Below, one piece after another: positions 1 through 10,092 of a DNA stretch of 10,092 bases. Within the stretch, counting starts at the first letter, position 1; each line of letters opens with the position of its first letter. A program made the translations under genes and the position numbers. The stretch lies in NCBI GenBank assembly GCA_041288095.1, contig JBGGMJ010000131.1:1-10092 (forward strand), in the 5' to 3' direction. The notes beneath the pieces are model-generated. The model was given only the letters and a program-made list of their open reading frames with translations, searched no databases and was not told the DNA's origin. Source of the DNA: Myxococcota bacterium (lineage in GTDB: Bacteria > Myxococcota > XYA12-FULL-58-9 > JALHOP01).

Positions 1-180
1 AACGGCGAGGTCGAGCTGCTCACGGGCAAGGTGAAGAAGCCCGTCCTCTTCAAGTCGAGTCACCAGCACAACGCGGTGCGCGTCTTCCCCAAGCAGTCCG
101 TCAAAGCGAAGCGCGAGAATCACACCGACGCCGAGCTCGGCGAGCTCCTGAAGATCGTGCCCGAAGCCGCGCAGCACTAG
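1..180 (+). CDS. 3' end of a protein of unknown function (partial, runs in from the left edge)
   Basis: Frame 1 is open from base 1 to TAG at 178-180 (NGEVELLTGKVKKPVLFKSSHQHNAVRVFPKQSVKAKRENHTDAELGELLKIVPEAAQH*), with strong G/C bias at third codon positions. It converges on the next gene; the two TAG stops overlap in CTAG at 177-180. Confidence 0.75.
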   Translation, partial: NGEVELLTGKVKKPVLFKSSHQHNAVRVFPKQSVKAKRENHTDAELGELLKIVPEAAQH

Positions 181-1118
181 CCCGTCTTGTTGAAGCGGAT
201 GGTGATGAACAACCGATCACCGGCGTCGATGACACCGTCGCCGCCGACATCGATCGGGCCGTCCCCGGAGATGTTCAGGTAGTAGATGTGCCCGCTGTGC
301 AGATCGGTGCAGTGATTGTTGGACCACGTGCTTGGCGTATCGATGAACGCGGTCATGGCGAGGCCTGGTGCTTCGCAGTGCTGCGAGTCGAAGCGACTCA
401 CGACGTTGCCGACATCGCAGGGCTCGTCGCTGATCGAGAGCTTGTAGCCGTAAAGGCCGCCCCCGAACGTGATGTCGGTGATGTTGTAGGTCAGCCTCGA
501 CGGCTCGTCTGGGAGGCGCACCCGCATGCTGATGACACCCGCGAACTTGAGCCAGCGCAGGTCGATGAGCAGGTTGTTGTTCTGCGCGAGGCTCGTCTCT
601 TCGAAGTCCACCATCGGATAGTCGGAGAGGGGGCAGTTGCCGTAGGACATCTGGCCCGCGCCGAAGATGGTGCAAGAGGCGCCGCCCACGGGACGAATCT
701 CCTGGGTCGCCGGTAGACCAACGCCGCCCTCGGCGCACCATGGCTGCGTGGGCCGTGGCGACGGTCCGTAAACGCGCGTGTCGAACGGTACGCAATAGCG
801 GTCAATGCATTCGCCGGCGAGACCCGCCGTGGCGCAGGCCGTGCCGTTGGGGACGGTGTCGTAGATGCAAGCGCCGGCTTCGTCACAGCGACCGTTGTTG
901 ACGCAGCCGTCATTGGCGGTCGCGGCGCAGGTGCAGGGCGCTGGTTCGCTGCTTGGCGGGGCGTCCGCGGGCTCATCGGCGGGCGGTTCGTCCGGTAGGT
1001 TGTTGCTCGGCGCCGGCAGGCGGGGGTCGGGCAGCTCGAGGGGGCGCAGGCGATCGCCACCGCAATGCAAGCACGCGACCGTTAGCCCCAACGCGAAGAG
1101 ACGTGACACGCCACCCAT
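177..1118 (-). CDS. Cys-rich putative lipoprotein or exported protein, tandem paralog A (313 aa)
   Basis: Hydrophobic N-terminal signal ending in Cys (TVACLHC), Pro/acidic linker, 8-Cys module (CTC...NDGC..NGRCD..GAC...NGTAC...GECIDRYC), then a domain with 6 further Cys and a C-terminal DVGGDGVIDAGD loop. Colinear with 1184-2116. Confidence 0.85.
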   Translation of the reverse strand: MGGVSRLFALGLTVACLHCGGDRLRPLELPDPRLPAPSNNLPDEPPADEPADAPPSSEPAPCTCAATANDGCVNNGRCDEAGACIYDTVPNGTACATAGLAGECIDRYCVPFDTRVYGPSPRPTQPWCAEGGVGLPATQEIRPVGGASCTIFGAGQMSYGNCPLSDYPMVDFEETSLAQNNNLLIDLRWLKFAGVISMRVRLPDEPSRLTYNITDITFGGGLYGYKLSISDEPCDVGNVVSRFDSQHCEAPGLAMTAFIDTPSTWSNNHCTDLHSGHIYYLNISGDGPIDVGGDGVIDAGDRLFITIRFNKTG

Positions 1119-1162
1119 CGCTGTACGTACCCGTGTCGGGCCGCTGCCGGGCGCGCGGCATA

Positions 1163-1180
1163 CCCTGACACGGTGTCGGC
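1163..1180. promoter_or_regulatory. Dyad-symmetric motif upstream of paralog A (candidate operator)
   Basis: CCCTGACACGGTGTCGGC, core GACAC-G-GTGTC. It is 16/18 identical to 2191-2208, which lies upstream of paralog B. Confidence 0.55.
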
Positions 1181-1183
1181 CCC

Positions 1184-2116
1184 TCAGGGGCGGTCGAACT
1201 GCAGCGTGATCAGCAGGCGCTCGCCCGCGTCGATGACGCCGTCGGAGGTGGGGTCCGCCGGCCCTGCGCCATAGATGTTGAAGTAGTAAATGTGTCCGGA
1301 GCGCAGTTGGTTACAGGGTGCGCCCGCGCCCGCCGGCCCGTCGACCGACCCCGCCATGTACGGCCCGCCGCCTTCGCAGTGCGTGGCGTCGAAGCGCGGC
1401 GACGTCACGCCGACATCGCACGGCGTGTCGCTGATGCTCACCAGATAGCCCGGCGTGTTCTGGCCATAGTCCGTGAGAGCGAACAAGAGGTTCGATGGCT
1501 CGTCGGGAATACGCACGCGCAAGCTCAGCACGCCGGCGAACTTCAGCCAGCGCAGGTCGAACTTCGCCTGCAAGCGCGTGGCGAGGCTCGTGTCCTCGAA
1601 GCTGACCATCGGATACGTCTCCACCGGGCAGTTGCCGAAGGCCATCTGGCCGGCCCCGTAGATGGCGCAGGCGGCGCCACCTATCGGATTCAACGGCTGG
1701 GTCGCCGGTAAGCCGACCCCCGAGATCGGACACCAAGGCGGTCGCGCAGGGGGCGGCGTCCCGTAGGTCTGCGTATCGAACGGTATGCAATAGCGGTCAA
1801 TGCACTCACCAGCCAAACCGGTGGTCGTGCAGGTGGTGCCGTTGGTCGCCGTGTCCCAGACACACGCGCCGCCGGCATCGCAGCGGCCGTTGACGGCGCA
1901 TCCATCGTTGATGGTCGCCAAGCACTCGCACGGGGTCTCCTGCGGAGGCTCCTCGGGCGGCGTTTCGGCGGGCGGGGCTTGCGGTGATGTTGGATTGGGG
2001 GCCGCGGGGGGCGGCAATCTCGGGTCCGGTGGATCGACGGGCCGCAAGCGGTCTCCGTTGCAGCACAGGCAGACGAAGGCGAACGCCACCGCCAGGGAAC
2101 GCGACACGCCACCCAT
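1184..2116 (-). CDS. Cys-rich putative lipoprotein or exported protein, tandem paralog B (310 aa)
   Basis: Start placed at ATG 2116 rather than 2131: GGAGG (2122-2126) lies 5 nt upstream, and the N-terminus MGGVSR then matches paralog A exactly. Same signal-Cys, Pro linker, 14 conserved Cys and a DPTSDGVIDAGE loop. Confidence 0.85.
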   Translation of the reverse strand: MGGVSRSLAVAFAFVCLCCNGDRLRPVDPPDPRLPPPAAPNPTSPQAPPAETPPEEPPQETPCECLATINDGCAVNGRCDAGGACVWDTATNGTTCTTTGLAGECIDRYCIPFDTQTYGTPPPARPPWCPISGVGLPATQPLNPIGGAACAIYGAGQMAFGNCPVETYPMVSFEDTSLATRLQAKFDLRWLKFAGVLSLRVRIPDEPSNLLFALTDYGQNTPGYLVSISDTPCDVGVTSPRFDATHCEGGGPYMAGSVDGPAGAGAPCNQLRSGHIYYFNIYGAGPADPTSDGVIDAGERLLITLQFDRP

Positions 2117-2130
2117 CCCAGCCTCCACCA

Positions 2131-2155
2131 AACACGGACTCTGTGGTGAAGTTCC
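2131..2155 (-). promoter_or_regulatory. Possible ECF-sigma-type promoter for paralog B
   Basis: The minus strand reads GGAAC-N17-GTT (GGAAC at 2155-2151, GTT at 2133-2131) just upstream of the GGAGG site. The motif is short and could be chance. Confidence 0.25.
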
Positions 2156-2246: not shown

Positions 2247-4154
2247 CTACGGCGTGGGCTGCCCGTTGCTTGCGAGCACCTGCTCGATCGAGCGCGCCGT
2301 CAGTGGATGATACGTGGGCTTCGCCGCCGCGAACACGCGCTCGGCAATCGGTCGACCCCAGTCGCTCGCCACCAAGTCTTTGTAGACGGGGATGATGTAA
2401 CGCCGGCGCCCCTGGGTCGACAGGTGCTCCTCCATCGACGCCACCGCGCCGTCGTAGTGATTCTTGGCCGCGATGCGCAGCCACTCGAAGCGAATGGCGC
2501 GGTTCTTCGTTTGCGAAAACGCGAAGGCCTTGTCGAGCGCCGTCAGCTGCTCGGCCGAGCGCGGCTGGGGCATGTTCTTCAGGAAGTGCAGCCACTGAGC
2601 GGTGATCCAACCCTGGGCGGCGAGCGCGGTGGGCTCGGCGCCGCCTTTGAGCTTCTCGAGCTCCGCGTCGACGTTCGCGAGCAGCTTCGAGCTCGGGGGG
2701 ACCGCGTTGTTCGGCAGGCCCGGTCCGAACACCCATGCGTCGACTTGCGCGGTCTGCACGGCGCCCGCGTCGCCGTTGAACAGACTCTGCTTCACCAGAC
2801 GCACGAACTCTTCGCTGGTGATGCTCTGGAAGGCGTGCGTGTTGAAGTAGTTCTTCATGAAGGCGTCGAAGCGCATCCGTCCGACTGTCCGCTCCAGCAT
2901 ACTGAAGAAGCTCGCGCCCTTCGTGTAGGGAATCGAGTTGACGCCGTCATCGGGGTCGTCTGTCGCCTTCATGTCGAGGCAAAGCTTCGTCTGCTCGGGC
3001 TTGTCCTTGGATTCGACCAGCATCGCCGTGAGCTCCTGCCACTCGAGGACCTGGTTCAAAGCCATGCGGTCCTGGCCGTAGACCGTCTCGAGGATGCGGT
3101 TCTCGAAATACTGGGTCGCGCCTTCGTTCAACCAGAAGTCGTTCCAGGTGCCGTTGGTCACGAGGTTGCCGGACCAGGAGTGCGCGAGCTCGTGCGCGAT
3201 GAGAGACACCATCGACCGGTCTCCGACGATCGACGTCGGCGACACGAACGTGAGTCGCGGGTTTTCCATGCCGCCGAACGGGAACGATGGGGGCAGCACC
3301 AAGATGTCGTAGCGGCCCCAGCGGTAGGGTCCGTAAAGGCGCTCCGCGGCTTCGACCATGTTCTCGGTGTCGGCGTACTCGTAGGCGGCGGACTCGACCA
3401 CCGACGGCTCGGCGTAGACACCGGTACGGTCGCCAATCTTGCGGAACGCCAGGTCGCCGACCGCTAAAGCGATCAAGTACGGGGGGATACGCTCCGGCAT
3501 ATCGAACTGGAACGTGCGCAAGATGCCGTCGACTTCGCCCTCGTCTTCGCCGACGTGGGCCGCGCTCATGACCGCGCGCAGGTCGCTCGGGACATGAATG
3601 CGCGCATCGTAGGTGACGCGGACACTGGGCGTGTCCTGGAGCGGGATCCAGGTGCGCGTGAGGATCGCCTGACCCTGCGTGAAGAGGAACGGCTTCTGCT
3701 TGCCGGCGGTCTGCGACGGCGCGAGGAACTGCAGAGCGGTGGCGTCCGGGGCCGTCACATAGGAGATGACGATCCGATCACCGATCTCGGGGAGCGCGAC
3801 CGTCAACGCGGAGCCGATGAGGCCATCCGAGGCGCTGACCTCGAAGGTGAGCGGTTTACCGGCGCCGTCGACGATGCGCTCGATGAGCAGACCCTTGACG
3901 TCGAGGACGATGTGCTTGGCCGAGGGCTGGCGGTCGACCGTGAGCTTGGCCTCGCCGTGCATGGTGCGGTGCTCGAAGTCGGTCGTCAGGTCGAGGCTGA
4001 CGTGGCGCACCACCGCTTCGGCCGGCCGGGCGTGCGAGTGGATGTCGGCTTTGGCCGGCGCGGTCGGCGGCCCCCGCAGCGTGCCGGTGGTCGAGGTGAC
4101 GTGGGAGCAAGCAGCAAGGGAGAATGCGGCTACCGCGAATAGGAGATTGCGCAT
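2247..4154 (-). CDS. M1 family zinc aminopeptidase (leukotriene A4 hydrolase-like), predicted lipoprotein (635 aa)
   Basis: GGMEN exopeptidase motif; HELAH-x18-E zinc motif (HELAHSWSGNLVTNGTWNDFWLNEG); YTKG catalytic Tyr region; LTA4H-type C-terminal GRRRYIIPVYKDL; N-terminal lipobox LAAC. Confidence 0.95.
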   Translation of the reverse strand: MRNLLFAVAAFSLAACSHVTSTTGTLRGPPTAPAKADIHSHARPAEAVVRHVSLDLTTDFEHRTMHGEAKLTVDRQPSAKHIVLDVKGLLIERIVDGAGKPLTFEVSASDGLIGSALTVALPEIGDRIVISYVTAPDATALQFLAPSQTAGKQKPFLFTQGQAILTRTWIPLQDTPSVRVTYDARIHVPSDLRAVMSAAHVGEDEGEVDGILRTFQFDMPERIPPYLIALAVGDLAFRKIGDRTGVYAEPSVVESAAYEYADTENMVEAAERLYGPYRWGRYDILVLPPSFPFGGMENPRLTFVSPTSIVGDRSMVSLIAHELAHSWSGNLVTNGTWNDFWLNEGATQYFENRILETVYGQDRMALNQVLEWQELTAMLVESKDKPEQTKLCLDMKATDDPDDGVNSIPYTKGASFFSMLERTVGRMRFDAFMKNYFNTHAFQSITSEEFVRLVKQSLFNGDAGAVQTAQVDAWVFGPGLPNNAVPPSSKLLANVDAELEKLKGGAEPTALAAQGWITAQWLHFLKNMPQPRSAEQLTALDKAFAFSQTKNRAIRFEWLRIAAKNHYDGAVASMEEHLSTQGRRRYIIPVYKDLVASDWGRPIAERVFAAAKPTYHPLTARSIEQVLASNGQPTP

Positions 4155-5032
4155 GGTGGCATCGGCTTAGCGCGTTGCTCGGGCCTTGAGAAGAGGCCGC
4201 GCGCCGCCAGCATGCCGGCTATCACGAGCCCCGTGCCAAGCCACTGCATGAGGCCCATGGGCTCATCCAAAAGCAGGGCGGCGACGCCGATCACCAGCGG
4301 CCGTTGCAACAACGTGAAGATCGAAACCCGCGTCGCGCCAACCAGCTGCATCGCCTTGAGGAAGGCGACATTGGCGAGCGCGGCGAAGACGCCGGTCCAC
4401 AGGCTTGCGACCACGGCGGCCGGCGGGAACGTTCGTACGAGGGGTCCTACGACGAGCACGGCGCACACGCCTTGAACAGTCATGACCCACGATGAGACCA
4501 CGGCCGGCGCGACCCGCGTCATCAGGGCGTCGAGGTGCAGGCGGTAGACACACGATGAGACCACGGCCGCCGCGCATGCCGCGACGCCGAGCGTGTCGAG
4601 ATTGGCGTCGCCCGGAAGCTCGAGGGTCATCAACACGCCACAGACACACGCGGCGACCCCTAACCAGAAGAGTGGCCCGGTCCGCTCCCGGCCGCGCATG
4701 TGATTGACGGCGGCCACCAGCGCCGGCGTGGTCGTCACCGCCACGACCACGATGCTCGTGGGCACACGCGTGAGCGCGAACAAGGTCAGACCCGAGGTCG
4801 TCGCCAGGAGCAAGCCACCGAAGGCGACACCGCGCCGGTCGCGTGGGCTCGCCGGCAGCTTCGTGGCGACGCTGGCGCGGAAGCGGGTGATGGGCCAGAC
4901 CGCGAGCGCCGCGACCAGACAACGGCCGACGAACAGCGATTCGAGGGGGACGCCGTGGGTGTAACCGAGCTTGGCGACCAGCGGCTCGAACGACGCGGCC
5001 AGGAGCGCTAAGAGTAGCCAGACCGTCGTCAC
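4130..5032 (-). CDS. EamA/DMT family inner-membrane transporter (about 300 aa)
   Basis: True start is probably GTG 5032, overlapping the upstream TGA as GTGA; the Arg-rich N-terminal part of ORF 4130..5695 is spurious. About 10 hydrophobic segments in two repeats, with a typical EamA end (AFLKAMQLVGATRVSIFTLLQRPLVIGVAALLLDEPMGLMQWLGTGLVIAG). The stop overlaps the peptidase start by 25 nt. Confidence 0.88.
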   Translation of the reverse strand: MTTVWLLLALLAASFEPLVAKLGYTHGVPLESLFVGRCLVAALAVWPITRFRASVATKLPASPRDRRGVAFGGLLLATTSGLTLFALTRVPTSIVVVAVTTTPALVAAVNHMRGRERTGPLFWLGVAACVCGVLMTLELPGDANLDTLGVAACAAAVVSSCVYRLHLDALMTRVAPAVVSSWVMTVQGVCAVLVVGPLVRTFPPAAVVASLWTGVFAALANVAFLKAMQLVGATRVSIFTLLQRPLVIGVAALLLDEPMGLMQWLGTGLVIAGMLAARGLFSRPEQRAKPMPPCAISYSR

Positions 5033-6192
5033 GACACGCGCTCGTAGCGCTGCTGCTCGGGCGCGCGATGGCGCGGGCGGGAGACGTGCAATCGCTCGTT
5101 GATCTCGGAGGCCGACAGCGCTCCCCAGCCGAGGCTCGCGAGATTGCGGCAACCCGCGAAGAGCTCGGGGCCCAAGAGCACGCGCGCCAAGGAGACGACC
5201 GAATCGAGCACGGGCACGTCGAGCATCGCCTTCTTGGCGAGCTGGTGCGCCGGCAACAGCGTGCAGGTCACGTCTTCGCGCAGGTAGCGGTGATCGAGCT
5301 TCGTGGGCGCGATGCTCGTCTGGTAGTTCGGCACCGTGCGCATGGCGTGCAGGAGGGTGCCGCTGGTGTCGCATCCGTAATAGCGGTCGAGGAGGTCGCG
5401 CGCCGAGATGAGCGAGCTGCCATAGGCGCCCGCGATCGAGCGAAACTCGGCTTCGAGCGCTTCGATGAGCGCGGCCGTGCGCGGGGTGAAGCCGTCCATA
5501 TAGAAGAGGAAGGACTCGCCGCGGTCGACACGGTTCGCGTTCACCAGCACCGTGAGCGGGTGGACCAAGGCGCCGAAGTCGGTAAGGCCGCGCTGCACCA
5601 GGTTCGCGGCGCGCTCGACCTGCGGGAAGAAGCGCTGCAGCAGCGCGACGCCGCGCTCCATGTCCTCGGCCGCGGGGGTGGCCGCCAGGTTCCATTTCTT
5701 GATGCCGCGGACGTGCACCGAGCCGTCGTCTTGGAGGCGTGCCGCGAACAACGCGTCGGTCTCCGCGATGAGGTCGGGTTGGGCGCCGCCGTGCGCGTCG
5801 ATGGCACGGGCCAGCTCGAGCGAGCCGAAGAGCTTGCTCGAGAAGACGATGATCTCGTGGGCGCTCGTCAGGTAGGGCGCCATCTGCCGCGCGACATCGC
5901 GATACGCCGTCGCGACGGTGCAGACGAAGACGGTCGGGCAGATGCTCAAGAGCTCTTCCATGGAGCTCGTCACCATGGGGACGGCAAAGAGCCCGTCGAT
6001 GGCACCCGTGGCGCGCAGTAGCTTGGTCGTGGCAACCGCGGCGATCTTCCGCGGCGTCCGAACGAACAGGTGCGGGGCGTAGCCGCGCTGTGCCAGGTAC
6101 GCCGCCAGAGCATGGGCGCTATTACCTCCGCCGACGATGCCGACGGGGCCTTCGTTCGAGCGCGGAAAACGTACGGTGCGCAAACGAATCAT
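5029..6192 (-). CDS. NAD(P)-dependent opine dehydrogenase, octopine/nopaline dehydrogenase family (387 aa)
   Basis: Rossmann IVGGGNSAHALA; IAETDAL segment; LTDFGALVHPLTVLVNANR (catalytic His region); FLFYMDGFTP; HRYLREDV (catalytic Asp). These resemble the Arthrobacter CENDH-type opine dehydrogenase motifs as I recall them. GAGGGAG lies just upstream of the ATG. Confidence 0.88.
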   Translation of the reverse strand: MIRLRTVRFPRSNEGPVGIVGGGNSAHALAAYLAQRGYAPHLFVRTPRKIAAVATTKLLRATGAIDGLFAVPMVTSSMEELLSICPTVFVCTVATAYRDVARQMAPYLTSAHEIIVFSSKLFGSLELARAIDAHGGAQPDLIAETDALFAARLQDDGSVHVRGIKKWNLAATPAAEDMERGVALLQRFFPQVERAANLVQRGLTDFGALVHPLTVLVNANRVDRGESFLFYMDGFTPRTAALIEALEAEFRSIAGAYGSSLISARDLLDRYYGCDTSGTLLHAMRTVPNYQTSIAPTKLDHRYLREDVTCTLLPAHQLAKKAMLDVPVLDSVVSLARVLLGPELFAGCRNLASLGWGALSASEINERLHVSRPRHRAPEQQRYERVS

Positions 6193-6207
6193 CGCTCCCT
6201 CTGCGAT

Positions 6208-6228
6208 TGAGAATGACTCGCAATCTCA
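6208..6228. promoter_or_regulatory. Fur-box-like operator upstream of the opine dehydrogenase operon
   Basis: TGAGAATGACTCGCAATCTCA. 6208-6222 matches TGAGAAT-N-ATTCTCA at 12/14, and the 19-mer 6209-6227 matches GATAATGATAATCATTATC at 13/19 on the minus strand. It is an AT-richer island 15 nt upstream of the start codon. Confidence 0.65.
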
Positions 6229-6284
6229 TCGCAGACGCGGAAAGGCAAGGAGAAAGAGTGGGAGGGCCATCTTGGTTGTCGGCG

Positions 6285-6304: not shown

Positions 6305-7453
6305 TCAACTCGATCGATTTTGGGGCGCCGGGAGGGTGAAGCTGATGGTCACGCCGTCGCCCGGGAGACTTTCCGCCCAGATGCGGCCGCCGCATCGTCG
6401 GACGACCCGCTGGGCGGTCCCGAGCTCTGCGCGGTCGGCACGGAGGGTCCCAAATCCAGTATGCGACGTGAAGAGCGTCTTGGCGGTGCCCGCGTCGAGG
6501 CGCTGGCCGTTGTTACGGACGAAGTAGCATTGCTGGCCGGCGGTGGTGAGCGAGCCGACCTCGACGCGCGGGGCCGCCGCCCCCGCCGTGACTTTCCAGG
6601 CGTGCTTGAGCAGCGCTTCGACGAGGAGGCGGGCGAGCCCAGGGTCGACGTCGGCGCGCATCTCGCCGTTGACGCTGAGGTCCACCGTGCGTCCAGGGTT
6701 GACCTGTTGCACGAGCGCCGCGCAATCACGGGTGAGTTGCGCGAGGTCCACCTGGGCGGTGTGGGCGCCGCGGGGCGCGCTCAACACTTCGAGCTCGCGC
6801 GAGGCCAGCGCCATGAGCTCGTCGCGGCGCTTCTCTTCGGCGCGCAGGTGTCTCGCCAAGAAGACGGCGGTGATGGCGATGACGGTCAAGAAACCGACGA
6901 TGATGCCGAGACGCACGCGCGCGACGAGGGTCTGGGTGCGGACGATGTCGGCAAAGGCGCGATCGAGCTCGTCAGGGTCCACCGCGGTGACCCGCCCGAT
7001 GAGCTCGCGCGCCTGCTTTTCGCTCTCCTGCATGTCCTTGATGCTCTGGAGCAGCGACTCGCCGGTCTCGTTGCTCATGAGGCGCCGCGACACGGCGAGC
7101 CCGGCGGCATAGTAGGTCTTGAAGGCGTTGCGTAGAGCGCCGGCGTCCGACGAGGAGAGGCTCGGCTGCGCCGCGGCCACGATCTCGGAGACTTCGTCGA
7201 GCCACATGTGCGTGGTGCTCAGGACCTCGAGATCTTGGGCAGCGACCGCGTCCTGAAAGCCGCGGCGAATCCTCTCGAGCTGCGCGTCGAGCTTGGGGCC
7301 GAGCTTCATCTTGGGCAGGTAGCGCTCGCTGATCGTCAGGAGCGAGTCGCGAACGTGGACGTCCGCTATCGCGCCACTCCCGGCGACCAGGATGCCGCCG
7401 AGAATGGCGAGGCCGACGATGATGACGAGCCCGGCTCGGCGAGTGAGGCGCAT
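6305..7453 (-). CDS. Membrane sensor with degenerate histidine-kinase ATPase domain (pseudokinase, 382 aa)
   Basis: TM1, helical periplasmic domain (about 150 aa, four-helix-bundle-like), TM2, short coiled coil, then an HATPase_c-like region (VDLAQL...DPGLARLLVEALLKHAWK...YFVRNNG...RVVRRCGGRIWAESLPGDGVTISFTLP). No H-box is present. It starts 1 nt after the upstream stop (TGA-C-ATG). Confidence 0.85.
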   Translation of the reverse strand: MRLTRRAGLVIIVGLAILGGILVAGSGAIADVHVRDSLLTISERYLPKMKLGPKLDAQLERIRRGFQDAVAAQDLEVLSTTHMWLDEVSEIVAAAQPSLSSSDAGALRNAFKTYYAAGLAVSRRLMSNETGESLLQSIKDMQESEKQARELIGRVTAVDPDELDRAFADIVRTQTLVARVRLGIIVGFLTVIAITAVFLARHLRAEEKRRDELMALASRELEVLSAPRGAHTAQVDLAQLTRDCAALVQQVNPGRTVDLSVNGEMRADVDPGLARLLVEALLKHAWKVTAGAAAPRVEVGSLTTAGQQCYFVRNNGQRLDAGTAKTLFTSHTGFGTLRADRAELGTAQRVVRRCGGRIWAESLPGDGVTISFTLPAPQNRSS

Positions 7454-7454
7454 G

Positions 7455-7901
7455 TCACGGGCCTTTGATCTGAAGCGCCTTGGCTTCGCCGATGCCCGCG
7501 TCCGAAGACACGTAGGCTATTGCACCGCGATTGTTGGTCACGAACTTCACGACGTCTTGGTCGCTGGCGAGCTCGAGCGGCGGCAGCTCGCGCCCGGTGA
7601 ATATACGTTGCTGCCAGTAGCTGCGGACCTGAGGCACGGTCTTCCCCAAGACCGCCGTGGTGAAGCGTTGGCGGACCGGTGACTCGGAGGCGAGATCGAC
7701 CGGCCGGACGCCTTCGTGGTCGGGCCAGGTGGTGCGCCGCTTGAGGAAGAGGTCGGCTATCAGCTTGCGGTCCGCGGAGGTGAGCGGGTTGTCGCGGTGC
7801 ACGATGACCTGGAAGCCCGGCGGCGGCGGCTCGGCCACCGCGGGAGCAGTGGGGGCGGTCGTCCAGACGGCGACCGCTATGGCGAACAGAAGCGCGCGCA
7901 T
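7455..7901 (-). CDS. Small exported protein resembling one lobe of a type 2 periplasmic binding protein (family often annotated as phosphate ABC substrate-binding-like; 148 aa)
   Basis: Start ATG 7901 overlaps the porin stop (TGATG); the longer ORF to 8741 is an out-of-frame shadow over the porin. Signal peptide MRALLFAIAVAVWTTAPTAPAVA; motifs VIVHRDNP, IADLFLK...W, YWQQRIFTG, VVKFVTNNRGAIAYV. Confidence 0.82.
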   Translation of the reverse strand: MRALLFAIAVAVWTTAPTAPAVAEPPPPGFQVIVHRDNPLTSADRKLIADLFLKRRTTWPDHEGVRPVDLASESPVRQRFTTAVLGKTVPQVRSYWQQRIFTGRELPPLELASDQDVVKFVTNNRGAIAYVSSDAGIGEAKALQIKGP

Positions 7902-9070
7902 CAGAAATAGGCCGTGGTCTTGACCAAGACCAGGCCCCACTCCTTCTTGAGCTCGCTGCGTGGCTTGCCGTCGTTGAGCGCCGTGCTGAGGTCGGCGGTG
8001 CCGAGCATGTAGTGGCCTTCGAGCTTCACCAACCAGTTCTCGGTGATGTCGAAGCGGAAGGTCGCGGCGATGTCGTTCTGGATGTTGGCGCGCCCCTCGC
8101 GCTCGCGCGTGTTCGGGAAGAGGAGCGAATAGTAGGCGCCGGGTTGCAGCCAGTCGGTGATGCGGTACGTCCCCATGACATACGCGCGCTCGCTGGTCGT
8201 TTCCTGATCGTCTGGAAATATCGCTGGATTGCTGCTGTTCTGTGACTGCACGTGCCAGCGGCTGTATTCCGCGGCGAGCAGCAGGTTTTCGTACGTGTAT
8301 TCGGCGGAGGCGACCCACAAGACAGCTGGGATCTCGACGTTCACCGTCTCGACGCCGCCGAAGGTCGCCGTGGTGTCGAGGCGCAGATCTTGGAGGCTGC
8401 CACCGACGCGCAGGCCTTCGAGCGGGGTCTCCCACATGAGGCGGCCGCCCATGACGTAGGGGACGCGCAGTCGGTCGATTCTGACAGGGGCGCCTGGCTC
8501 GTTGGCGGGAGTGTCGATCTGGATGACGCCAGCGTAGAGCCGGTACTCGAGGTTGCCAAAGATGGCGAGCGGGATGAGGCCGTAGAGCTCGCCGCCGCTC
8601 TGCGCCAGCAAGAAGTCGCGATTCGCCGCCGGATACACCGACTGCGGCAACAAGACCTGAGCGCGCGCCGCATCGACGTCGTTGATCTCGTTGTAGAGGC
8701 CGAAGGGCATCTTGACGCGGCCGGCGCGTAGGCCAAGCCAATCACGGAACCGGTAGTCGATGTAGAACCAGTCCATTTTAGCGTTGTAGTTGCCGAGTGG
8801 CCCGAGCTTGCGCGCGAACAGCTGCGTGCCCATGCGCAACTTGTCGCCGAACTGCTTGGTGACGTTGACGCCGACCTCGCTGAACTCGAAGCTGCCGCGC
8901 TCGGCGCGCGACTCGGCGAGGTAATTGTTGTCCCAGGTCTTGATCCAACCCTGGCTCGCGAAGCCGTGGATCTCGAGCGGATTGACCTCGTCCGAGCCAA
9001 TAGTGACCGCGGAAGCAGGTGCCGCGACAGTGAGCACGGTGGTCGCAATGATGAGGCGAAGACGTGACAT
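7901..9070 (-). CDS. Outer-membrane beta-barrel (porin-like) protein (389 aa)
   Basis: Sec signal peptide ending APASA; alternating amphipathic strands; IHGFASQG and DWFYIDYRFRDWLGLRAGRVKMPFGLYNE motifs; C-terminal aromatic beta-signal (VKTTAYF). Confidence 0.88.
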   Translation of the reverse strand: MSRLRLIIATTVLTVAAPASAVTIGSDEVNPLEIHGFASQGWIKTWDNNYLAESRAERGSFEFSEVGVNVTKQFGDKLRMGTQLFARKLGPLGNYNAKMDWFYIDYRFRDWLGLRAGRVKMPFGLYNEINDVDAARAQVLLPQSVYPAANRDFLLAQSGGELYGLIPLAIFGNLEYRLYAGVIQIDTPANEPGAPVRIDRLRVPYVMGGRLMWETPLEGLRVGGSLQDLRLDTTATFGGVETVNVEIPAVLWVASAEYTYENLLLAAEYSRWHVQSQNSSNPAIFPDDQETTSERAYVMGTYRITDWLQPGAYYSLLFPNTREREGRANIQNDIAATFRFDITENWLVKLEGHYMLGTADLSTALNDGKPRSELKKEWGLVLVKTTAYF

Positions 9071-9127: not shown

Positions 9128-10092
9128 CTAGCGGCACTCCAGCAACAGCGCCTGGTAGGTGCGCTGCAGCCAGTTCTTGAAATTAAAGCGCTGCACCCAT
9201 TCTGGGAAGCTCCGGTGCACGACGCTGCAGCGATCGGCGAGACGCTCCGCTTCGGGGGGCAGCCAGTTGTTCGAGAGGTAGACGAGGAAAGGCGTGCGCC
9301 CTTCGGCCAGCGCCCGATCCACGGCGGCGTAGTCGTCGATGTAGTGCAGCTGGACGTGTGGCGACGCGTAGAAGCCGAACGCGAGCTCGCGGTAGGCATA
9401 CGGGCTCGCGTCGGCGACGTAGAGATCGCGTGGCGTGTGGCTGTTGTCCCAGATCGACTCGAGCACCAGCACCTCACCGCGCACCGGCTTGACGCAGTTC
9501 ATGACGAGATAGGCGAGATTGGGCAGGAGCAGGAGCACGACCAAGGCGCGGCCCCACCGTGGCAGCGCCAAGAGCGGGACGGTGAAGCGCTGGAAGGTGA
9601 CGACGAGCAGAGTCGTCGTGAGTGGCACCATCGGAAAGAGAAAGCGCAGCTCCTTGTGCGCGATGACCACGTGGCCGAGGAAAAACGGAATGGTGGCCCA
9701 CGTCAGCACGTGCCGCCGCTCACGCACCCAAGCCCACGGGACGACGATGAGCGCGAGGATGCCCACCGGCGGCGGCGTTTCGCTGACGATCTTACGGAAG
9801 TACCACCACCACGGCTGCACGCCGAAGGTCGAGGCCTTCGACTCGAGGATGTTGACGCGAAAGTATGCGAGCGGTGTGAGCGTCCAATCGCCGTACCCCC
9901 AATGGTCGACGACGCGCCCGAGGACAAAGACCGCCACCATGCCCGCTGCAGCGGACGCGAGTAGGCGCCACTGGCGTTGCACAAGGACCCAGGCGACGAC
10001 GCCGGCGATCATCAGACCCACCTGAAAACGCGCCTCGAAGGCGACGCCGGCGCAGACACCCGTAAGGACCCCGAGCTGGGCGCTACGCTTCT
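9128..10092 (-). CDS. Alg9/PIG-B-like (GT22, GT-C fold) membrane glycosyltransferase, 5'-partial
   Basis: The frame stays open past 10021 to the window end (KRSAQLGVLTGVCAGVAFEARFQVGLM...). Multiple TM segments, FGVQPWWWYF loop and HKELRFLFP motif characteristic of the Alg9/PIG-B mannosyltransferase family. Confidence 0.8.
   Translation of the reverse strand, partial: KRSAQLGVLTGVCAGVAFEARFQVGLMIAGVVAWVLVQRQWRLLASAAAGMVAVFVLGRVVDHWGYGDWTLTPLAYFRVNILESKASTFGVQPWWWYFRKIVSETPPPVGILALIVVPWAWVRERRHVLTWATIPFFLGHVVIAHKELRFLFPMVPLTTTLLVVTFQRFTVPLLALPRWGRALVVLLLLPNLAYLVMNCVKPVRGEVLVLESIWDNSHTPRDLYVADASPYAYRELAFGFYASPHVQLHYIDDYAAVDRALAEGRTPFLVYLSNNWLPPEAERLADRCSVVHRSFPEWVQRFNFKNWLQRTYQALLLECR

Follow-up and report, generated by a model that had tools for sequence, protein, structure and literature searches.

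A putative Fur-controlled opine dehydrogenase-EamA cassette in a genus of Myxococcota

Background

Can an opine dehydrogenase and a single membrane transporter, with no nicotianamine synthase (NAS)-like partner, form a metal-controlled unit for the making and export of an opine? The question is raised by a locus in a metagenome-assembled genome (MAG) of the Myxococcota (5.85 Mb in 212 contigs, 89.98% complete). The stretch analyzed here, called the window throughout, is the whole of its contig C131 (JBGGMJ010000131.1; 10,092 nucleotides (nt)), and all genes relevant to the cassette lie on its minus strand. A preliminary description of this DNA had noted a Fur-like box ahead of an opine dehydrogenase gene coupled to an EamA transporter gene, and had proposed a minimal, metal-repressed make-and-export cassette without the NAS-like enzyme CntL. 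The opine metallophores staphylopine, pseudopaline, yersinopine and bacillopaline all need the CntL-CntM enzyme pair (PMC7438024). We find that the operator is conserved throughout the genus and shared with iron genes, and that the enzyme-transporter pair recurs across several phyla. The reading that we prefer, at somewhat better than even confidence, is that of an iron-repressed cassette making and exporting an acidic opine, possibly a one-enzyme metallophore.

A coupled gene pair behind a conserved operator

The opine dehydrogenase gene (5029..6192, minus strand) encodes a 387-residue protein of the N-(1-D-carboxyethyl)-L-norvaline dehydrogenase (CENDH)/Octopine_DH type (PF02317). It is followed directly by a gene for a 300-residue EamA/DMT-family membrane transporter (4130..5032, minus strand), the presumed exporter, which begins with GTG. 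The TGA of the dehydrogenase (5031-5029) overlaps this start codon (5032-5030) in a GTGA, an arrangement already described and confirmed in the sequence, and the EamA reading frame ends at 4130. The transporter matches PF00892 at 7e-20 in two stretches corresponding to two EamA repeats, and TIGR00950 at 7e-18, which is under that model's cut-off. Two nucleotides ahead of the dehydrogenase ATG stands a ribosome-binding site, AGGGAG (6195..6200, minus strand), whose pattern CAG[AG][AG]G is conserved in an alignment of four genomes of the genus, our MAG and its three congeners G001, G002 and G003.

The Fur-type operator covers 6206..6228 (strand entered as '.', the core being read on the minus strand). 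The Fur-like box of the preliminary description, the 21-mer TGAGATTGCGAGTCATTCTCA at 6228-6208 of the minus strand, lies where it had been placed, with 15 nt between it and the ATG at 6192. Its 21-mer register, in which 15 of 21 positions agree with the classical Fur box, was replaced, as the related sites on contigs C12 and C81 place the center at 6215. The core is then a 7-1-7 inverted repeat, TGCGAGT-C-ATTCTCA (6222-6208, minus strand), with the C at 6215 as its center of symmetry, and the 19-mer reading of the operator is ATTGCGAGTCATTCTCAAT at 6224-6206. The 7-1-7 consensus of Fur boxes is TGATAAT-n-ATTATCA; by a count made by hand against this consensus, the core matches 10 of the 14 bases. 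The window has a single match to the degenerate palindrome TGNGANTNANTCNCA, against none in 200 shuffled versions. All 21 bases are invariant in the four genomes of the genus, with diverging flanks, and the operator stays identical in G003 while the identity of the dehydrogenase drops there to 61%. We regard the element as a conserved operator of predicted Fur type.

An enzyme of the CENDH family, probably acting on acidic or polar amino acids

The dehydrogenase matches the Octopine_DH profile PF02317 at 7e-33 (114.2 bits against a cut-off of 30) over profile positions 2-149 of 150. The CntM family profile PF10100 (Staph_opine_DH) gave no match to the 387-residue protein at E <= 0.01 and none in the whole genome, though as a control this profile matched no reference genome either. 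The only strong solved relative by sequence is the CENDH of Arthrobacter sp. 1C, also called ArODH (1BG6; 8.7e-36). An AlphaFold model built on 18 family members (predicted local distance difference test score, pLDDT, 89.8) shows two domains, of which the N-terminal is a Rossmann domain, as it is in 1BG6, and the latter structure ranks first when the model is searched with Foldseek (E 1.3e-29, template modeling (TM) scores 0.84/0.93, root-mean-square deviation 2.0 A, 26% identity). Below it in this model-based comparison rank Pecten octopine dehydrogenase (TM 0.67-0.70) and then the CntM-type structures (TM 0.62-0.70, 12-16% identity). The earlier judgment that the enzyme is CENDH-type rather than CntM-like is thus borne out by profile, sequence and predicted fold.

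The active site can be read against that of ArODH. The motif G21-x-G23-x-x-A26 aligns to the ArODH glycine motif, and H211, R302 and D307 align to ArODH H202, R292 and D297; none of the three varies in the alignment of 18 family members. We take H202 and D297 to form the catalytic dyad of ArODH and R292 to be its substrate arginine. At the positions of ArODH D34 and D36 the cassette enzyme has V44 and T46, leaving no acidic residue, and the neighboring R45 is invariant. ArODH A111 and N198 are replaced by K120 and G207, both invariant in the 18 members, and H301 occupies ArODH position 291.

These replacements can be compared with a set of metagenomic opine dehydrogenases (Telek et al. 2024, PMC10787698), where a His-Asp catalytic dyad is named. 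The metagenomic enzymes prefer NADPH, and the differences in positive charge described for them include positions 34 and 36. Giving ArODH a basic residue at 111 and Gly at 198 moved its preference from L-Phe to L-Asp, the reverse change switched the preference back, and natural enzymes with the basic/Gly pair favor L-Asp or L-Glu with pyruvate (same source). The replacement of D34 and D36, seen in the light of what is generally known of Rossmann folds, suggests that the cassette enzyme probably prefers NADPH. Its substrates are probably an acidic or polar amino acid and an alpha-keto acid; the match of the K120/G207 pair to the enzymes preferring L-Asp or L-Glu leads us to expect an acidic opine.

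The claim that the unit lacks a CntL also stands. No NAS/CntL-like gene (PF03059) was found among the open reading frames (ORFs) of the window or in the 89.98%-complete genome.

Sites shared with iron genes

If the operator is recognized by Fur, it might be expected ahead of other iron genes. A matrix made from the three best sites gave 32 sites scoring at least 12 in the 5.85 Mb, only three of which are strong. The cassette site scores second-best (32.7). The best (34.5, contig C12) precedes a di-heme oxidoreductase gene (DHOR, PF06537) and an imelysin/EfeO-like gene, and the third (28.6, contig C81) precedes an OEP-CzcB-CzcA heavy-metal resistance-nodulation-division (RND) pump. Lower down are a site before an amine-oxidase-family gene (PF01593; 19.7, contig C210) and, ranked fifth, one before feoA-feoB, 5 nt ahead of feoA (17.7, contig C100). 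The feoAB and pump sites are each kept in four of four genomes of the genus and the site of the DHOR orthologue in three of three, G001 having only a paralogue, which lacks the box. An operator common to the cassette, feoAB, the EfeO-like/DHOR cluster and the pump points to a small iron-limitation regulon that includes the cassette, whose Fur binding and iron response are predicted here from sequence.

The pump belongs to the CusA/CzcA family (TIGR00914, 934 bits against a cut-off of 701), and its adaptor and outer-membrane proteins resemble IhpB and IhpA, subunits of a divalent-metal exporter; by sequence it would be a metal exporter induced when iron is low. A double Fur-type site stands about 100 nt ahead of the pump genes (C81:28948-34611; L098, L107).

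Two Fur-family genes were found in the genome. Fur is the best-scoring assignment for the one on contig C114. The second, for which it is PerR, stands immediately ahead of a katG-type catalase-peroxidase gene (C161:2003-4764, L094), an order that resembles furA-katG of actinomycetes.

The pair across bacteria

Among 60 related genomes, the enzyme is present in all three congeners, in none of 18 other members of the order, and in one of 39 others of the phylum, as a relative of 25% identity. Homologues of 41-53% identity are numerous in Obscuribacterales/Melainabacteria, Vulcanimicrobiota, Polyangiales and other Myxococcota, and in gut and rumen MAGs, and they occur in single MAGs labeled Selenomonadaceae, Synergistia, Chloroflexota, Verrucomicrobiae and Burkholderiales.

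We compared the best 80 of 170 confirmed relatives, a set of loci that includes the three congeners. EamA lies directly downstream on the same strand, at a gap of -60 to +200 nt, in 57 of the 80; in three it is further downstream (one split gene, two with an intervening DUF6686 ORF), and in two it is upstream or divergent, so that EamA is found near the enzyme in 62 loci from several phyla. Fifteen loci lack EamA despite sufficient sequence, and in three the contig ends too soon to judge. At one locus (L058) a MatE exporter stands in place of EamA. A quick tree rooted at its midpoint sets four EamA-less actinomycete/Cystobacter rows apart on one side; EamA linkage is distributed over the 77 others, and at least five changes are forced. 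The isolates among the 80 loci (Cystobacter, Saccharopolyspora, Streptomyces) fall in this EamA-less clade, and none of the loci with the pair comes from a cultured strain. Because EamA linkage is widespread and MatE can substitute for it, the conserved unit is enzyme plus exporter. Outward transport by EamA itself is presumed, from this replacement and by analogy with CntI.

The linkage of EamA to homologues, which the preliminary description had put forward for checking, is therefore real in 57 to 62 of the 80 loci. The companion expectation of upstream Fur boxes was borne out within the genus, where the box is invariant, and not beyond it. When 260 nt upstream of all 80 homologues were scanned with two Fur-type consensus patterns, TGATAATNATTATCA and TGCGAATNATTCGCA, only the three congeners clearly stood out (locus-matched fraction 0.02); the other low values were scattered (L037, 0.02; L016, 0.05; L070, 0.06-0.08) and had no common pattern.

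Neighboring genes

At these loci 373 ORFs, grouped in 235 clusters, are no more than 3 kb away from the pair. In a scan of representatives of every cluster none matched PF03059, and only one further neighbor recurs across lineages, a FolC/Mur-ligase-like gene of 454-491 residues downstream of the enzyme. It is present in 11 loci, following EamA in nine (L018, L020, L024, L029, L037, L041, L045, L073 and L081; for example L024:8191-9624) and MatE in L058, with no exporter found in L050. These loci sit on several branches of the enzyme tree, and in at least four of them (L018, L020, L073, L081) a methyltransferase gene is nearby, which suggests an extended product in those lineages. A search with the L024 protein found no homologue of the ligase in the genome studied here.

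In L060, L064, L073 and L074, which represent two lineages with internal identities of 62% and 48%, the gene directly upstream of the enzyme is of the Fur family; the encoded proteins score below the cut-offs of the Fur, Zur and PerR models alike. Three candidate operators were noticed at these loci: a perfect 25-bp palindrome, ATTATTGACACTTAGTGTCAATAAT, at L074:6299-6323, between the divergent EamA and Fur-family/dehydrogenase genes; TTTGCAAGTTATTTGCATAA, common to L060 and L064, about 25 nt ahead of the Fur-family genes; and, also in L060, TGAAGAATCATTCTGCA, whose core resembles the box of the window.

Other metal-related neighbors include FeoB divergent from the pair (L020), a divergent FTR1-cytochrome c fusion (L018), PepSY_TM upstream (L058), Metal_resist (PF13801) upstream in seven Obscuribacterales-type loci, an ArsR-type regulator after the enzyme, accompanied by SulP, in five loci, a multicopper oxidase overlapping the enzyme start (L082), and DUF1980 with an ArsP_1 permease (L073). 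A double-BPD ABC permease follows the pair in six gut or rumen loci, and a TonB C-terminal domain is encoded near it in L021. Each of these neighbor groups corresponds roughly to a single lineage, and so they amount to few independent observations.

Within the window, the start of a gene for an M1-family aminopeptidase of the leukotriene-A4-hydrolase-like kind (635 residues; 2247..4154, minus strand; PF01433, PF09127, PF17900) overlaps the 3' end of the EamA gene by 25 nt in the same orientation. The protein has a lipoprotein-type N-terminus (...LAAC) and matches TIGR02411 at 9.5e-146, under that model's cut-off. It follows EamA in all three congeners, where it is 84-91% conserved compared with 61-84% for the dehydrogenase, and in none of the 77 other loci. 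The aminopeptidase gene is probably co-transcribed with the cassette, in this genus only. The cassette had been called minimal; this fits the enzyme-EamA pair, which recurs as such, and does not fit the genus, with its overlapping peptidase gene, or the 11 loci with a FolC-like gene.

Upstream, 112 nt separate the dehydrogenase gene from a histidine-kinase-like gene (6305-7453, minus strand), whose product matches HATPase_c and has no HisKA match. G002 and G003 have this gene and G001 lacks it, the GT22 gene standing immediately before the box there, and because of that absence the kinase-like gene is not part of the unit. Beyond it, positions 7455-9070 (minus strand) hold two overlapping ORFs: a 389-residue porin-like frame (7901-9070, minus strand) with weak Porin_4/Porin_O_P matches, 86% identical in G002, and a 428-residue alternative at 67%. 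The former is probably the real gene. A partial gene for a GT22-family glycosyltransferase, an Alg9-like mannosyltransferase (9128-10090, minus strand; PF03901), ends this side of the window; it is conserved in all four genomes (L013:114-1958), and its family is known chiefly from eukaryotes. Two more ORFs, 313 and 315 residues long (177-2131, minus strand), lie downstream of the peptidase gene; they have no Pfam or NCBIfam match and no counterpart in the matching regions of the three congeners. A FecR gene lies near the pair in G002. A promoter scan returned no sigma-70-like promoters, terminator-like sites between the cassette genes were at chance level only, and an Rfam scan of the window and eight loci gave nothing except two tRNAs, with no riboswitch.

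Proposed mechanism and alternatives

In the mechanism that we propose, the candidate Fur encoded on C114 would sit on the 7-1-7 operator when iron is sufficient and block transcription. Under iron limitation the operon would be transcribed together with feoAB, the EfeO-like/di-heme cluster and the CzcA-type efflux pump. The dehydrogenase, probably using NADPH, would then join an alpha-keto acid, probably pyruvate, by reductive condensation to an amino acid, probably an acidic one (L-Asp or L-Glu, for example), to give an N-(carboxyalkyl) amino acid, a small aminopolycarboxylate, and the translationally coupled EamA protein would move this opine out of the cytoplasm. Once outside, it would most likely bind metal, serving either iron supply through Feo/EfeO-type routes or the buffering of competing metals.

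Several observations weigh against this reading. Fur binding and the iron response are read from DNA sequence, and since the scan described above shows no consistent box outside the genus, metal control of the family at large rests on the neighborhood in a minority of loci; many neighbors are unrelated to metals. The substrate is guessed from two aligned positions, and the basic residue is here Lys rather than Arg. On general chemical grounds, a mono-opine of Asp or Glu would be a modest chelator, much weaker than staphylopine-type molecules. With the genome at 90% completeness, the portion not assembled could still hold a cntL-like gene. Neither a TonB-dependent receptor nor an ABC system that could import a metal-opine is encoded among the window genes, and the idea that TonB-dependent receptors carrying the same box serve as importers was abandoned, as none of the 12 such genes in the genome has the box within 350 nt. 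Of the metal-repressed make-and-export interpretation in the preliminary description, the part that stands is the operator shared with feoAB and the EfeO-like cluster, together with the Fur-family genes beside the enzyme in two other lineages; an importer under the same box is what it lacks.

The CzcA-type pump fits metal buffering in iron starvation at least as well as it fits opine export, and this leads to the most probable, if still unlikely, of four alternatives, in which the exported opine protects against mis-metallation by binding competing Zn, Co, Ni and Cu outside the cytoplasm, alongside the CzcA/Ihp-like pump. The common operator, the IhpB- and IhpA-like subunits, the Metal_resist, ArsR-type, multicopper oxidase and DUF1980-ArsP_1 neighbors, and the absence of a boxed receptor among the 12 would all suit such a role. 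The FeoB, FTR1 and PepSY_TM neighbors and the co-regulation with feoAB and the EfeO-like gene suggest iron supply equally, however; the neighbor groups come each from one lineage, and the two roles are not exclusive. Slightly less probable is the reverse traffic, in which an environmental opine or opine-type metallophore enters through EamA and undergoes oxidative cleavage by the dehydrogenase, freeing nitrogen, carbon or metal. Opine dehydrogenases are reversible, iron-regulated piracy of foreign chelators is common, and some DMT-family proteins import; moreover ArODH, the closest solved relative, was reportedly obtained, as an enzyme of catabolism, from a strain growing on a compound of this sort, which also counts against the cassette reading. 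Yet the NADPH-type signature, with no acid at the D34/D36 positions and an invariant R45, would fit biosynthesis, the exporter family MatE replaces EamA in L058, the ligase-like and methyltransferase genes suggest that a product is built, and no binding protein or outer-membrane receptor is linked to the pair.

That the box is bound by some regulator other than an iron sensor, be it a Zur-, Mur- or PerR-type paralogue or an unrelated protein, with the cassette answering another signal, we consider improbable. Fur-family boxes of differing specificity look alike; a regulon with three strong sites is of a size more typical of specialized paralogues; the enzyme-adjacent Fur-family proteins elsewhere are not assignable to Fur, Zur or PerR; and the DUF1980-ArsP_1 pair of L073 is linked to zinc. 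Set against these are the positions of the box ahead of feoAB in four of four genomes and of the EfeO-like/DHOR cluster in three of three, and the finding of only two Fur-family genes, one PerR-like at katG and the other best as Fur; the outer bases of the half-sites, TG...CA, also match the Fur box and not the Zur or PerR boxes of Bacillus. Least probable of the four is an iron-sparing overflow, in which the enzyme re-oxidizes its cofactor with pyruvate and an amino acid and the opine is excreted, as in marine invertebrates, where opine formation ends anaerobic glycolysis (PMC10787698). Gut and rumen MAGs do carry the pair, as do members of Selenomonadaceae, Synergistia and Riflebacteria, for example, which are generally known as anaerobes, and no uptake system is linked to the pair. 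A signature of the NADPH type would nevertheless be ill-suited to a glycolytic NADH sink, the active site appears specialized for acidic or polar amino acids, and the adjoining Fur-family genes, iron transporters and ligase or methyltransferase additions better fit a dedicated product.

An extension of the cassette reading to other bacteria we advance only tentatively, as a doubtful proposition on present evidence. One-enzyme opine metallophores may be widespread and unrecognized, with an NADPH-using CENDH-type enzyme converting central metabolites in one step, without a NAS, to a product like N-(1-carboxyethyl)-Asp or -Glu, EamA or MatE releasing it, a Fur-family protein in control, and iron obtained through Feo/EfeO-type routes in several phyla (Myxococcota, Melainabacteria, Vulcanimicrobiota, and lineages of gut and rumen); some lineages would add a FolC-like ligase and methyltransferases.

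Significance

If the cassette reading is true, there exists a make-and-export unit built on the other opine dehydrogenase family, without CntL and under an iron switch, in phyla that are largely uncultured. No known metallophore pathway would then be simpler, with one enzyme acting on two central metabolites. Mining rules keyed on CntL and CntM, such as the opine-like-metallophore rule of antiSMASH, would miss such a unit. Opine dehydrogenases with acidic substrates, known up to now only as metagenomic biocatalysts, would gain a physiological role as well. With two genes and one operator, the cassette is a small and testable system.

Comparison with known systems

ArODH is the best relative by both sequence and fold, with aligned catalytic His, Arg and Asp. 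It prefers NADH and hydrophobic amino acids; the cassette enzyme differs from it at the D34/D36 and A111/N198 positions. ArODH is not known to have an exporter partner or metal control. The hot-spring enzymes mODH-45 to mODH-582 (PMC10787698) resemble the cassette enzyme in having ArODH as closest known enzyme, a basic residue at 111 with Gly at 198 and, in some members, His at position 291, as H301 here. Their basic residue is Arg and that of the cassette enzyme Lys, and the likeness runs through ArODH positions, not a direct sequence comparison. The parts of that paper covered here give no genomic context or physiological role for the mODH enzymes, and in our literature search no publication came up in which a PF02317 dehydrogenase is paired with EamA or controlled by Fur.

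The exporter of the IhpABC type, an RND system that is reportedly induced by low iron in Bradyrhizobium, shares with the FeoAB and EfeO genes the operator of the cassette in this genus; all of these are transporters rather than cassette members. An RND pump is reported as the outer-membrane exit for pseudopaline (bioRxiv 10.1101/2020.05.13.092411). The same role for the co-regulated pump found here was set aside: because it is of the CzcA heavy-metal type, metal efflux is a simpler reading than opine exit.

The nearest parallel in organization is offered by the Cnt systems, namely pseudopaline (cntOLMI of Pseudomonas aeruginosa), staphylopine (cntKLM of Staphylococcus aureus) and yersinopine. 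They too combine an NADPH-type opine dehydrogenase with an EamA (CntI-like) exporter in one metal-repressed operon, an arrangement predicted for the cassette, and the predicted final reductive condensation with pyruvate or alpha-ketoglutarate is alike. The enzymes differ in family, PF02317/CENDH-type here and PF10100 in Cnt, and no importer is found in the cluster here; nor was a CntL/NAS found, and the product would therefore have no aminobutyrate arm. The operator here is common to iron genes, not zinc genes. The exporter of Cnt clusters varies among EamA, MFS and MatE (PMC7438024), and a swap of this kind, MatE for EamA, is seen in L058 as well. CntM homologues are reported from only four phyla (PMC7438024), whereas the pair described here occurs in Melainabacteria, Vulcanimicrobiota, Myxococcota and others.

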